A program made the position numbers and the translations under genes. DNA of 64,000 bases from Phormidesmis sp. (GTDB taxonomy: Bacteria > Cyanobacteriota > Cyanobacteriia > Leptolyngbyales > Leptolyngbyaceae): NCBI GenBank assembly GCA_965248535.1, contig CBDFJR010000002.1, forward strand, positions 1,024,001-1,088,000, in the 5' to 3' direction. The first letter of the stretch is position 1; each line of letters begins with the position of its first letter. Below are positions 974 through 4,437 of the stretch, piece by piece. Under the pieces are notes generated by a model. It did not search any database. It was not told where the DNA came from and saw nothing but the letters and a program-made list of their open reading frames with translations.

Positions 974-1032
974 AGACATTTATGTCTTGTCAAAGTTTAC
1001 CAGACAAAAATGTCTATCGGACAAAAATGTCT
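974..1032. promoter_or_regulatory. Three operator-like palindromes (AGACA-N4-TGTCT) between divergent units
   Basis: AGACATTTATGTCT at 974-987, AGACAAAAATGTCT at 1002-1015 and GGACAAAAATGTCT at 1019-1032; a minus-strand TTGACA lies at 988-993. Confidence 0.75.
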
Positions 1033-1038
1033 GGTAAT

Positions 1039-1317
1039 ATGAACGAAGATAATCCAATTCGAGGCAATGCAGCTTTGAAAGCTTTAAGGGAAAAAGCTGG
1101 ACTCAACAGAATGCAGATAGCAAAGGCTATGGGCATTACTACCCGTATGTGGCAAAGGTATGAAAACGAAGGACGACCACCAGACAAGATTGATTTCGTT
1201 CTCAAACTTGCTGCCCTTACAGATACACCTGTTGATGAGGTACTGAAACTACTAGGTTTCAAAGTCCCAGACCGAGAAGAACTGCTTTCACTTATAGATA
1301 AAAGCGCTGAAGTATGA
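1039..1317 (+). CDS. XRE/Cro-CI family HTH repressor (start could be 1027)
   Basis: LKALREKAGLNRMQIAKAMGITTRMWQRYENEGRPP matches the HTH_XRE pattern. Confidence 0.85.
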   Translation: MNEDNPIRGNAALKALREKAGLNRMQIAKAMGITTRMWQRYENEGRPPDKIDFVLKLAALTDTPVDEVLKLLGFKVPDREELLSLIDKSAEV

Positions 1318-1473: not shown

Positions 1474-1520
1474 AAAAAAGGGCGATCGCCTCCACTAGCC
1501 GGAAGCGATCGCCCTTTTTT
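1474..1520. promoter_or_regulatory. HIP1-stemmed hairpin with A6/T6 tails ahead of the operon (terminator/attenuator-like)
   Basis: AAAAAAGGGCGATCGC...GCGATCGCCCTTTTTT. Confidence 0.6.
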
Positions 1521-1544
1521 GTCTAAAACATCTCACTCAAAATT

Positions 1545-1853
1545 ATGACCCAAATCACCAAACTTAGACCCGTGCCTCGGTGGGAGTCACCCCCCAACAA
1601 TCTCTATCCAATCATCAAGCAGCAGGGCATCGACTATCAGCTAGTGCCCCTATCCCTCATTGAGCAGTTGAAAACTGATCGCGAAAATCTAGTCTGGCTT
1701 GCCACGGGCGCGGCGGCAATGGCGATCGCCGCCGCCGTCGCCCTGGTCGCGGGTGCCTTCCGGCAAGAGACAAAAGTGATGACGATCGATAAGCCCGTCA
1801 TCGTCGAAAAGCAAGTCGTCGTCCCTACCAACTGCGTTCTGTTCTGCAAATAA
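1545..1853 (+). CDS. Hypothetical single-TM protein (102 aa)
   Basis: Hydrophobic helix LVWLATGAAAMAIAAAVALVAGAF; first gene of a tight operon. Confidence 0.75.
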   Translation: MTQITKLRPVPRWESPPNNLYPIIKQQGIDYQLVPLSLIEQLKTDRENLVWLATGAAAMAIAAAVALVAGAFRQETKVMTIDKPVIVEKQVVVPTNCVLFCK

Positions 1854-1865
1854 GGAGAAACTCAA

Positions 1866-2354
1866 ATGTCATTACTCGGAAAAACCATCTCAGCCAACAA
1901 CTATGGCGGCACCAGCATGAAGCCCAACGACGTGATGAACGTTGGCAGTCATGCCGTCACCCCCTGGAACCCCGGCGATAGCTCAGAAATTCGCACTGAG
2001 CAGGTCGTTAACCGTCATAAAAACTTCGCAAAAAAGGAGGCAGACGATCTGCGGGTCAAAGCCAAAACTCGTCAACGTCAGGCTAAAACCAATCGTCAGG
2101 CCTATAAAGCACTGACCGCGATCGAGAGGGCAGACAGTTCAGATCAAACTGCATTCCGGGGTTACCAGACCGCCGTCGCCACCGTCACCGCCGCTAAGAA
2201 AGGGGCAGACGTTTCTAAAGCCAAAGTGCTCAACGGACTCACACCCAAGTACGCCAACATGGGCTATAGCCTGGGAGCTTCCAGCGATGAAGCCCAAGTG
2301 AAAGTCCGTGAATATCAAGCGCTTTACACCGAAGTTAACAGTCGTTGGAACTAA
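1866..2354 (+). CDS. Hypothetical Ala/Lys-rich, probably helical protein (162 aa)
   Basis: Strong AAGGAG RBS; ORF track. Confidence 0.8.
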   Translation: MSLLGKTISANNYGGTSMKPNDVMNVGSHAVTPWNPGDSSEIRTEQVVNRHKNFAKKEADDLRVKAKTRQRQAKTNRQAYKALTAIERADSSDQTAFRGYQTAVATVTAAKKGADVSKAKVLNGLTPKYANMGYSLGASSDEAQVKVREYQALYTEVNSRWN

Positions 2355-2373
2355 CCACCAGGAGGAAAACTAA

Positions 2374-2646
2374 ATGATACGAATGGCTAGACTCACCAAT
2401 TACGCATGGTTGGGTCTAGCCATTAGTTCTTTATTAGGGCTAATGGCTAGACACGTCGCACCGCTAGGAGTTGGAGTATGGGTCACGCTCCTGCTACTGC
2501 TATTTGGACTCGGAACTGCACTGATTGCAGGAAACCTGTTAGACCACCACTTTGGATGGGTTCAAGACACCTCATTGGCACTCGCGATCGGCTTACTCGG
2601 AATCTTCATCATAGGGAGCGTGATCGGATGGTTAATCCTGCTCTAA
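2374..2646 (+). CDS. Hypothetical 3-TM small membrane protein (90 aa)
   Basis: AGGAGG RBS; three hydrophobic segments. Confidence 0.8.
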   Translation: MIRMARLTNYAWLGLAISSLLGLMARHVAPLGVGVWVTLLLLLFGLGTALIAGNLLDHHFGWVQDTSLALAIGLLGIFIIGSVIGWLILL

Positions 2647-3299
2647 AACGACTGCCCTACGGCATCCAGTGGGGAATGTCGATCGGCGTAGGCATCGTCA
2701 CCTGGTTCGTTGCCGTCAGTTTTGTGCGGCTGCTACCCGCCCCATTGCAACTACTGTCGATGCTCATCCCGATCGCCTGCTTCAGCTACGGGCTTTATGT
2801 CCTTCCCCGATGGAAAGATGAAGGCAAGCGCCGCGACTTGATTGAATCCCTGAAAGAGCGCGAATACGCTCACCGCATAATGCAACAGCATCATCTCAAC
2901 ATCGCAACCGATGATATCGAGTTCAACAGCACCATGAGAGAACTTGAGGCGATGTATCCCGTCGATAACCCTGCGGATAGAACGCCATCGGGCACAACTC
3001 CACACTCACAACTGGCACTACCAGAACAAGCAACCTACCTCTTAAAAGTGCAGCAGGAGGTCATGCAATCGTGTGGCGATATTGGCTGGGCCCTTGTGGA
3101 ATGGGCAAGCGGTTCAGGCTCTAAATACTGTGGACAAGATGGATGGATTTCCGTCGAGGGTTTACGCGCTAATTGGGGCAAAAAATACGGCTTAAAAACA
3201 GACGATCTTAAAACCCTGCTATCAGCATTAGTCGGAATTCAGATCGGAGAGTGGCGCAATTCTGAACTCAAAGAATGGCGATTAATCCTAACACTTTGA
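2628..3299 (+). CDS. Hypothetical protein with 2 N-terminal TM helices, a linker and a possible C-terminal winged-helix domain (223 aa)
   Basis: GGGAG RBS before ATG 2628, overlapping the previous gene; C-terminus ...GWISVEGLRANWGKKYGLKTDDLKTLLSALVGIQIGEWRNSELKEWRL. Confidence 0.75.
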   Translation: MVNPALKRLPYGIQWGMSIGVGIVTWFVAVSFVRLLPAPLQLLSMLIPIACFSYGLYVLPRWKDEGKRRDLIESLKEREYAHRIMQQHHLNIATDDIEFNSTMRELEAMYPVDNPADRTPSGTTPHSQLALPEQATYLLKVQQEVMQSCGDIGWALVEWASGSGSKYCGQDGWISVEGLRANWGKKYGLKTDDLKTLLSALVGIQIGEWRNSELKEWRLILTL

Positions 3300-3472
3300 A
3301 CGCTTGCTATTTTTTGCGGATCGGACGATCGGACAATCGGACGGATTTGCGGATACCTAGTCCGATTTCTGTCCGATCCGGAATCCGCAAATCTGTCCGA
3401 TTTCTGTCCGATCTCTCTAAGTCAAATTTGACGACTGAACAGACGCTAAGAATTACTGTTAGTTGAACGCTT
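3296..3472. repeat. Array of 7 ATCGGAC/GTCCGAT motifs with a 19-bp inverted repeat, bracketed by a 10-bp direct repeat
   Basis: ATCGGAC at 3320, 3328, 3336; GTCCGAT at 3360, 3371, 3395, 3406; inverted repeat 3336-3354/3383-3401; TTGAACGCTT at 3296 and 3463. Confidence 0.85.
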
Positions 3473-3477
3473 AATAA

Positions 3478-4335
3478 ATGGCTCGTGACTGCCGCTACTG
3501 GATTGAAAAATTTAAGGAGGATTACTTCCAGCGTGGTAGCTCTGAAACAACGTGGAGAACCGAGTATCACAAGATGCTCAAACTACTCCCGTCAGACAAA
3601 CCTTTAACTGCCAAATTACTGCACCAATTAGTAGTATCAACCGAGGTCAATACTCGCACTCGCATCCGCGCCTGCATGGTGGCCGGACAGCTTGCCCGGT
3701 TCGCGAAACTCAACTACGACCCGTCACCTTATCGAGGCAAGTATTCAGCAAAAAGTGTTTCACCCCGCAATGTTCCCAGTGATGATCTAATTGTTGATTG
3801 GTACGATCGCCTCAAAAATCCCAACTGGAAGTGGGTCTACGGGATGCTCATCACCTATGGGCTTAGACCTCATGAGGCTTTCAGACTCGACTTTGAACAA
3901 TTACGGCAGCGCGATCGCGTTCTCTGGGTTGAGAACGAAACCAAGACCGGGAGCCGTCAAGTCTGGGCCTTTCATCCTGAATGGTTTGATGAATTCGACC
4001 TCCACTTGGTGCGGCTGCCCAACATCCAGCTAGACCGAACCAACGATCGAGTAGGACACAGCGCCACCGCCTATTTTAGTGAGTTTGGCTTGCCCTTCCA
4101 TCTCTACGATCTGCGACATCGATGGGCAATCAGAACCCTCGAATATGGGCTAGATATCGGTCTAGCTGCAAAGCAGATGGGTCATAGCCGCGAAGTGCAT
4201 GAGCGCGTCTATCACCGATGGATCAACGTCACGATTCATCAGCGCGCTTACGAGTCGATATTGAGTCGAGACGATCGCCCGCGGCCGCCGTCGAGGAAGA
4301 AACCATCAAAAAAAGAAGAAGGGCAAGACCGATAA
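3478..4335 (+). CDS. Tyrosine recombinase/integrase, cyanobacterial Xis-like family (285 aa)
   Basis: Catalytic motifs GLRPHE, TKTG, YDLRH and MGHS...HERVY; adjacent to a tRNA. Confidence 0.92.
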   Translation: MARDCRYWIEKFKEDYFQRGSSETTWRTEYHKMLKLLPSDKPLTAKLLHQLVVSTEVNTRTRIRACMVAGQLARFAKLNYDPSPYRGKYSAKSVSPRNVPSDDLIVDWYDRLKNPNWKWVYGMLITYGLRPHEAFRLDFEQLRQRDRVLWVENETKTGSRQVWAFHPEWFDEFDLHLVRLPNIQLDRTNDRVGHSATAYFSEFGLPFHLYDLRHRWAIRTLEYGLDIGLAAKQMGHSREVHERVYHRWINVTIHQRAYESILSRDDRPRPPSRKKPSKKEEGQDR

Positions 4336-4351
4336 AAGTCTTGCCCTTCTT
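4316..4351. terminator. Hairpin between the integrase and tRNA-Glu, overlapping the integrase stop
   Basis: Perfect 14-bp stem AAGAAGGGCAAGAC / GTCTTGCCCTTCTT. Confidence 0.75.
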
Positions 4352-4364
4352 ACGTTTTGCTACA

Positions 4365-4437
4365 TACCCCCAGGGGAATTCGAATCCCCGTCGCCTCCGT
4401 GAAAGGGAGGTGTCCTAGGCCTCTAGACGATGGGGGC
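4365..4437 (-). tRNA. trnE: tRNA-Glu (TTC)
   Basis: The reverse complement GCCCCCATCGTCTAGAGGCCTAGGACACCTCCCTTTCACGGAGGCGACGGGGATTCGAATTCCCCTGGGGGTA folds as a cloverleaf with anticodon TTC. Confidence 0.97.

Follow-up and report, generated by a model that had tools for sequence, protein, structure and literature searches.

The closest described systems are found in Streptomyces. In the accessible parts of the published accounts, the 8-bp clt repeats are the binding site of TraB, intramycelial spread requires Spd membrane proteins (PMC4447253), the clt of pWTY27 begins in the last 16 bp of traA and comprises direct and inverted repeats, and the specificity of TraB is ascribed to its helix alpha3 (PMC3583192). 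The corresponding parts of two further papers make no mention of cyanobacteria (PMC12857230, PMC3218068), and a 2014 paper gives, in its accessible part, circumstantial evidence only for conjugation in cyanobacteria and deals with VirB4-type systems only (PMC4027160). For the movement of mobile DNA between the cells of cyanobacterial filaments, we present a small, defined candidate: four genes and a 100-bp site, existing in motorised and motorless forms, with the specific prediction that one residue, K186, sets one base of the site. The locus lies in a 64,000-nucleotide stretch of Phormidesmis sp. DNA, called the window here. Its features, in window coordinates, are:

982..1317 (+), context: gene of an XRE-type HTH repressor, on the upstream side of the cassette (Pfam HTH_31, E 1e-10)
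1474..1520 (no strand), terminator-like inverted repeat (20 bp, with a T-run) that delimits the cassette upstream
1545..1853 (+), ORF1, 102 aa, one transmembrane (TM) helix, conserved C-terminal VPTNCxxFC motif, no known family
1866..2354 (+), ORF2, 162 aa, soluble, predicted single 106-residue helix (residues 56-161), the best marker of the cassette
2374..2646 (+), ORF3, 90 aa, three-TM membrane protein
2628..3299 (+), ORF4, 223 aa, two TM helices, helix, linker and predicted winged helix, ATPase absent
3021..3296 (+), predicted winged-helix domain of ORF4, residues 132-223 (VIA-align Z 7.3-8.9; Foldseek)
3183..3185 (+), codon of K186 (motif NWGK-K), which tracks the variable repeat base (co-change analysis)
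3312..3413 (no strand), converging repeat array, putative clt-like docking site (7-mer copies, shuffles, close-locus comparison)
3478..4335 (+), tyrosine integrase, 285 aa (context; Pfam Phage_integrase)
4270..4386 (no strand), right attachment repeat, 117 bp, 96.6% identical to a copy 14.07 kb upstream
4365-4437 (-), tRNA-Glu, its 3' end overlapped by the right attachment repeat
-9649 to -2615, outside the window (L031:1352-8386) (-), late operon of 11 genes, called late by position only

The cassette and its host elements

The four genes and the array belong together as a cassette that is conserved among mobile elements of filamentous cyanobacteria. The earlier note had described four tightly linked ORFs with one TM segment, none, three and two, respectively; the ORFs were confirmed at 1545-1853, 1866-2354, 2374-2646 and 2628-3299, and hydropathy gave 1, 0, 2-3 and 2 segments. 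The ATG at 2628 is the start of ORF4, as supported by alignment A1. All four proteins stayed below the thresholds of Pfam and NCBIfam, no capsid, lysis or structural match turned up for them, and PHROGs gave no match for ORF1, ORF3 and ORF4 and only weak ones for ORF2 (E of at least 0.002, on the helix). The AlphaFold model of ORF2 is a single 106-residue helix (residues 56-161), for which no fold match was found. With the queries used, no relatives of ORF4 or ORF2 were found in viral contigs; a plasmid search with ORF4 itself returned no relatives, the PDB held no sequence relative of it and the ESM Atlas no usable match. Promoter and terminator scans stayed at chance level. In all four genes pN is well below pS, as expected under purifying selection (for ORF1, 0.33-0.41 versus 0.68-0.76).

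ORF2 was found in 24 of 401 genomes of the phylum by a single-protein search and in 21 of 401 genomes of the class by a profile search. The 56 loci fetched hold 60 ORF2 matches, followed by ORF3 in 54/60 and by ORF4 in 55/60, counts for which the profiles were partly built from the counted loci and in which the misses include contig ends and two motorised genes. The same gene order, for which a search had been proposed, recurs on small plasmids and in integrated elements. Carriers include contigs of 6.7-15 kb that encode a DUF3854 Rep, pOSC7112.05 (a complete plasmid of 7.6 kb and 10 genes), five co-resident Crinalium plasmids, and integrated elements, of which some have late genes and others do not; those named are Phormidesmis, Myxacorys, Alkalinema, Crinalium and Oscillatoria. 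On pCRI9333.04 the cassette lies alongside ParM and ParA genes, and pCRI9333.07 carries it with no annotated par gene. Decayed copies also occur, namely an ORF1 fragment in L033 and an internal deletion in L062. The record name of a 9-kb cassette contig (L058, JADEXW010000185.1) gives a coverage of 812, which suggests high-copy replication of this element. In one sample of 401 genomes, ORF2 was present in 21 of 209 FraD-positive and 0 of 192 FraD-negative genomes, with DUF5357 as the marker (its top match by NCBIfam is the septal junction protein FraD), with many small genomes among the negatives and with one FraD-positive family at 0/46. Since kin are not independent, this association is a pattern and not a test. 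A literature search that covered mainly open-access main texts found no description of the cassette, which is real, conserved and apparently undescribed.

The recurrence of the 117-bp repeat 14.07 kb apart places the cassette inside an element of 14.2 kb whose integration site is the 3' end of tRNA-Glu. This element contains the tyrosine integrase, the XRE repressor, a primase/helicase-type Rep of the AAA_25 family, which is its only P-loop protein, and the 11-gene operon. Neither VirB4, relaxase or mating-pair genes, nor a terminase or packaging ATPase, nor a Par NTPase (ParA, ParM, TubZ) was found in it. An HTH gene occupies the position of the XRE repressor in L055, L058 and L097-L099, and the integrase is equally short in L055, L096 and L099. 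Between the repressor and the divergent genes, at 970-1040, lie direct and inverted repeats of CAGACAAAAATGTCT, which are probably operators of the XRE repressor; the same region contains the element's eighth ATCGGAC. The Rep gene is split into 421 and 207 aa (L031:9300-11170, window -1701 to 169), its relatives measuring 626-637 aa, and two metagenome runs carry one extra base where the two parts meet, so that either allelic variation or faulty assembly may account for the split. Logan contigs, which may not span the 117-bp repeat, listed neither an attP nor an attB joint, and the four sequencing runs listed include no RNA dataset. In one metagenome run, a weak contig joint skips 1519-3497, with a short side of just 22 letters, and we take it as a weak hint.

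The proteins of the late operon measure 101, 867 (Pro-rich), 269, 173, 85, 156, 107, 132, 194, 128 and 82 aa. None of the 11 genes has a curated family match, and one small gene has a weak holin match (E 5e-4). Searches found no relatives of the 101-aa protein in viral contigs, none of two late genes in phages and no usable ESM Atlas match for the 269-aa protein. The operon is conserved in integrated elements of several cyanobacterial families and could encode the particles of a tail-less virus that has not been described and has no packaging ATPase. Two other elements were seen in the same genome. One is decayed (L033:12411-13000, G000 C2 about 2,355,500): all that it has kept of the cassette is 73 codons from the start of ORF1, along with the hairpin upstream; the other (L032, G000 C2 1,427,000-1,440,300) has an integrase and homologues of four late genes, with the cassette absent.

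ORF4 and the array behind it

In the AlphaFold model of ORF4, two TM helices (residues 18-60) are followed by a long helix, a linker of low confidence and, at 132-223, a compact domain. VIA-align matched this domain to the winged helices of TFE-alpha, Fur/PerR, ArsR and ORC/Cdc6 with Z 7.3-8.9, almost all of its structural matches are winged helices, and so are the top Foldseek rows for ORF4 (E of at least 0.05). The winged helix that had been predicted for the end of ORF4 is thus present in the model, in the last ~90 residues. A profile of the domain matched 53 proteins among 1.84 billion, which are mostly either two-TM proteins 190-230 aa long and devoid of a Walker A motif or TM-ATPases of 450-800 aa; three of them (P0057, P0078, P0085) pass Pfam FtsK_SpoIIIE. 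A first version of the profile matched 3 of 401 phylum genomes, one of them at chance level, and no second protein with this winged helix was found in the Phormidesmis genome. Five cassettes have a TM protein with an ATPase, FtsK-type or P-loop, in the ORF4 slot (L053, L150, L151, L155, L156); L155 and L156 pass FtsK_SpoIIIE, and L155 passes FtsK_alpha as well. Longer homologues with an FtsK-type ATPase, another expectation of the earlier note, therefore exist both in the ORF4 slot and among the profile matches. ORF4 itself has no Walker A motif, as had been claimed, and no Pfam match, and no motor was found in the element. Given a winged helix that also ends many TraB-like ATPases, and the five motorised cassettes, ORF4 appears, on sequence and model, to be a TraB-like translocase that lacks its motor, that is, a motor-less relative of TraB/FtsK-type DNA translocases. 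With regard to motorised ancestry, loss of the motor is the simpler reading of ORF4. As a separate observation, the genome encodes an 1815-aa ORF with a C-terminal FtsK/SpoIIIE domain as its sole Pfam match (L174:632-6076, G000 C2 2,419,631-2,425,075).

The tail of ORF4 is modular; in place of the winged helix there can be a smaller HTH-like domain, an HNH-like tail rich in Cys/His, or no domain at all. A narrow ORF4 profile gave a probability of 1.6% against HTH-type ORF4s; a wider profile of the N-terminal part reached 96% (E 5e-9) against the HTH-tailed ORF4s of plasmids, on which basis we accept N-terminal homology. The motorised ORF4s of L155 (5929-7893) and L156 (5696-7321) have the HNH-like tail, assigned by eye, and no array, and in pCRI9333.02 an annotated HNH gene lies between ORF3 and ORF4 (L086:6756-7283). 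A nuclease may replace the reader domain of ORF4 in these three loci.

Behind ORF4, the heptamer ATCGGAC occurs at 3320, 3328 and 3336 on the forward strand, with an 8-bp period, and at 3360, 3371, 3395 and 3406 on the reverse strand, 11, 24 and 11 bp apart. This position count bears out the seven copies, three direct and four inverted, of the earlier description. The extent given there (3296-3472) has to be narrowed: the array is present, with CCTAG at 3356-3360 as its centre, but its proper span is about 3312-3413, and the end at 3472 takes in the spacer before the integrase. ATCGGAC has 525 copies in the 5.03-Mb assembly, and only the array has at least three within 120 bp; of 300 dinucleotide shuffles, 5 attained the top 5-mer count of the 165 bp past the ORF4 stop, and the element has no second cluster of TCGGA. 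The array directly follows the ORF4 stop in all 14 distinct close loci, and in 13 of these it beats shuffles at p<=0.017, the exception being the G-run array of L072 (p 0.17). Its layout is fixed, with proximal copies, a TA-containing centre and then inverted copies ~11 bp apart; the centre, C[CT]TA(TA/A)G, lies 49-50 or 58-59 bp past the stop in 13/14 loci, and L071 has the distal arm only. The spacing is constant to the ORF4 stop and not to the start of the next gene, which is an integrase in just four of the 14 loci and an unrelated gene in the other 10. We also considered the array as a remnant of the N-terminal arm domain of the integrase and dropped this idea because integrases this short are found repeatedly and an array stands behind ORF4 regardless of the gene after it.

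The same converging layout is found behind the motorised genes, including those of Nostoc PCC 7120 plasmids delta and epsilon, and Nostoc plasmid ATPase genes with such an array were found in 4 of the 33 plasmid records examined. It is also found, centre CTAG included, in L153, which has a different winged helix, and is absent from L155 and L156, which have none. In HTH-tailed ORF4s, a similar array often lies within the linker (6 of 21 genes beat 60/60 codon shuffles).

In the motif NW[GA]x-X of the winged helix, residue X (K186 here) tracks the base that follows the invariant G of the repeat, a column and a repeat register that were both chosen by eye. Of 43 distinct loci, four with weak arrays (L078, L084, L123, L125), whose few copies read N:T, were dropped before the count. 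The remaining 39 give N:T 20, S:G 7, K:A 6, H:C 3, D:G 1, R:A 1 and S:A 1, so that residue and base match in 38/39. The exception, L117, has a one-residue insertion; the array of L036 is mixed (7 T, 3 C), as is that of L154 (residue Y, G/A), which was found later and stands outside the count. The N:T pair, first seen in four motorless loci, was afterwards confirmed in 16 motorised ones. When residue X and the positions next to it were masked for tree building, X changes on the tree 10 times, the base 8 times and the joint pair 10 times, so there is no base change without a residue change. In a scan that used the base values from the 39-locus count, only one of 34 columns leaves no base change unexplained, with a purity of 38/39 versus 30/39 for the next best, and 7 of 82,325 base histories simulated with 8 changes on the same values did as well (about 0.003 after 34 columns). 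Independent N-versus-other pairs agree in 4/4 cases (p=0.125). An array that co-varies downstream, for which the earlier note had suggested looking, is thus found in this match and in the close loci, and the co-change points to direct reading of the array by the ORF4 winged helix. On the opposite strand, the pairs Asn-A, His-G and Asp/Ser-C are common contact preferences and Lys/Arg-T is less typical. By eye, repeat positions 4-5 also seem to vary with the residue that lies two positions ahead of the invariant W (Q:A, K:C, R:T; L073-L080, L116-L140).

Proposed function and rival explanations

We propose that ORF4, through its winged helix, makes the DNA of its own element dock at a membrane complex, probably for cell-to-cell spread, a reading to which we give an even chance as a whole. 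Several ORF4 winged helices would bind the phased repeats, with K186 reading one base, and the two arms and TA-containing centre would allow the DNA to loop back onto an oligomer of ORF4. The membrane part would be built from ORF1, ORF3 and the long helix of ORF2, a role that Spd proteins have with TraB. The excised circle would be held at the membrane or septum, and its passage into the next cell would be either passive or driven by a motor provided in trans. Binding of the array by ORF4 winged helices, one base being read by K186, together with anchoring in the membrane, is what we infer with high confidence; that spread is the purpose of the cassette could equally turn out right or wrong. 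Spread is favoured by the apparent translocase ancestry, the FraD-positive hosts and the coexistence with ParM and ParA on pCRI9333.04. Since TraB transfer needs ATP hydrolysis, a motorless ORF4 cannot pump DNA alone; the genome has two FtsK-domain ORFs elsewhere, but they are unrelated and nothing links them to the cassette. This, the motorless state of the element and the lack of a second protein with this winged helix among those found in the genome count against spread.

The main rival is partition, which we regard as rather unlikely and in which ORF4 would tether the circle to the membrane for both daughters, with the array as a centromere, the ORF2 helix as a spacer or filament and no transfer. 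A passive tether requires no ATPase, and about 50 of the 60 cassettes are motorless, but the ancestry appears to be that of a translocase and not of a Par protein. The cassette is the main cargo of replicons of 6.7-15 kb and of the 10-gene pOSC7112.05, and element-specific repeats would suit the five co-resident Crinalium plasmids; however, pCRI9333.04 already carries ParM and ParA, and integrated elements are numerous among the carriers. Also on the side of partition, repeats phased at 11 bp are reminiscent of centromeres; on the other side, partition would not require a restriction to FraD-positive genomes. Docking for spread is the reading we prefer, and packaging, regulation and a decoy fit worse than partition.

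An improbable reading is that the array serves as a signal for packaging or assembly, with the cassette bringing DNA to the membrane for particles made by the late operon. Homologues of that operon were found by tblastn in 7/14 close loci, and the element is without a terminase or packaging ATPase; nevertheless, the cassette occurs without late genes on small plasmids, in L059 and in L036, L032 shows the reverse, and no late gene has a structural family match. Even less probable is that ORF4 is a membrane-bound regulator and the array the operator of whichever gene comes next, in this element the integrase. The integrase start lies 65 bp past the end of the array, four close loci have an integrase at this place, and regulator winged helices are among the fold matches of ORF4, but unrelated genes follow in the other 10, the distance is constant to the ORF4 stop and not to the next start, the array often lies inside ORF4 in HTH-type relatives, and motorised ATPases are followed by the same layout. 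Least probable of all, motorless subunits could poison or block incoming related translocases, or the cassette could be a decaying relic, as motor loss is common and decayed copies such as those in L033 and L062 exist, but a relic does not fit strong purifying selection on all four genes and a maintained residue-base matching, and a decoy would have no need to read its own array.

More broadly, and tentatively, it is possible that filamentous cyanobacteria own a TraB/clt/Spd-like route for dsDNA, mostly motorless, with a one-residue-one-base address code (N:T, K/R:A, H:C, D/S:G), ORF1-3 as a septal channel and plasmids and prophage-like elements spreading along the trichome. If the code is true, the docking address would be re-programmable by single substitutions. 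A tunable DNA membrane tether could serve as a tool to stabilise or spread plasmids in filamentous cyanobacteria, and a motorless TraB derivative under selection would imply either a second job for such proteins or a systematic borrowing of motors.

Comparison with known systems

Plasmid centromeres such as ParR/parC and omega/parS consist of phased direct and inverted short repeats and have an element-encoded binder. ORF4 differs from such binders in being membrane-anchored and apparently translocase-derived, and the element lacks ParA, ParM and TubZ. In the FtsK/SpoIIIE gamma domains with their KOPS/SRS sites, a winged helix reads an oriented 8-mer, and motorised relatives of the cassette match FtsK_SpoIIIE; the cassette, however, has its sites in one array and not replicon-wide and has no motor, and FtsK gamma is not among the listed fold matches of ORF4.

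Also comparable are the TM-ATPase-winged-helix proteins of Nostoc and Tolypothrix plasmids (WP_010994159.1, WP_010999524.1), which occupy the same end-of-operon position and have a converging array past the stop. In contrast to ORF4, they keep the motor and sit behind ParG/ParM-type genes. They are unannotated, our literature search found no description of them, and their upstream genes are not detectably homologous to ORF1-3; the same holds for the genes before the motorised ATPases of genus g178.

The TraB/TraA-clt-Spd systems of Streptomyces (pSVH1, pIJ101, pJV1, pWTY27) and the AICEs, as described in the accessible parts of the sources, share with ORF4 a predicted N-terminal membrane anchor and a C-terminal winged helix (PMC4447253, PMC3583192, PMC12857230). 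In the same accounts, they share with the cassette element-specific repeats of 7-9 bp adjoining the end of the gene, an upstream operon of small membrane and coiled-coil proteins, and a filamentous host. ORF4 thus has the predicted anchor, the predicted winged helix and a cognate repeat locus, and it lacks the FtsK/SpoIIIE domain; because the ATPase is absent from ORF4, the cassette is not a TraB system, though it is TraB/clt/Spd-like in layout. ORF1-3 resemble Spd proteins in topology but match no Pfam, PHROGs or NCBIfam family. Whereas clt consists mainly of direct repeats, the cassette array converges on a fixed centre with 11-bp phasing, and whereas TraB specificity is ascribed to helix alpha3, the co-varying residue of ORF4 lies in the turn just before helix 3. 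Finally, unlike Streptomyces, the host of the cassette is a diderm cyanobacterium.
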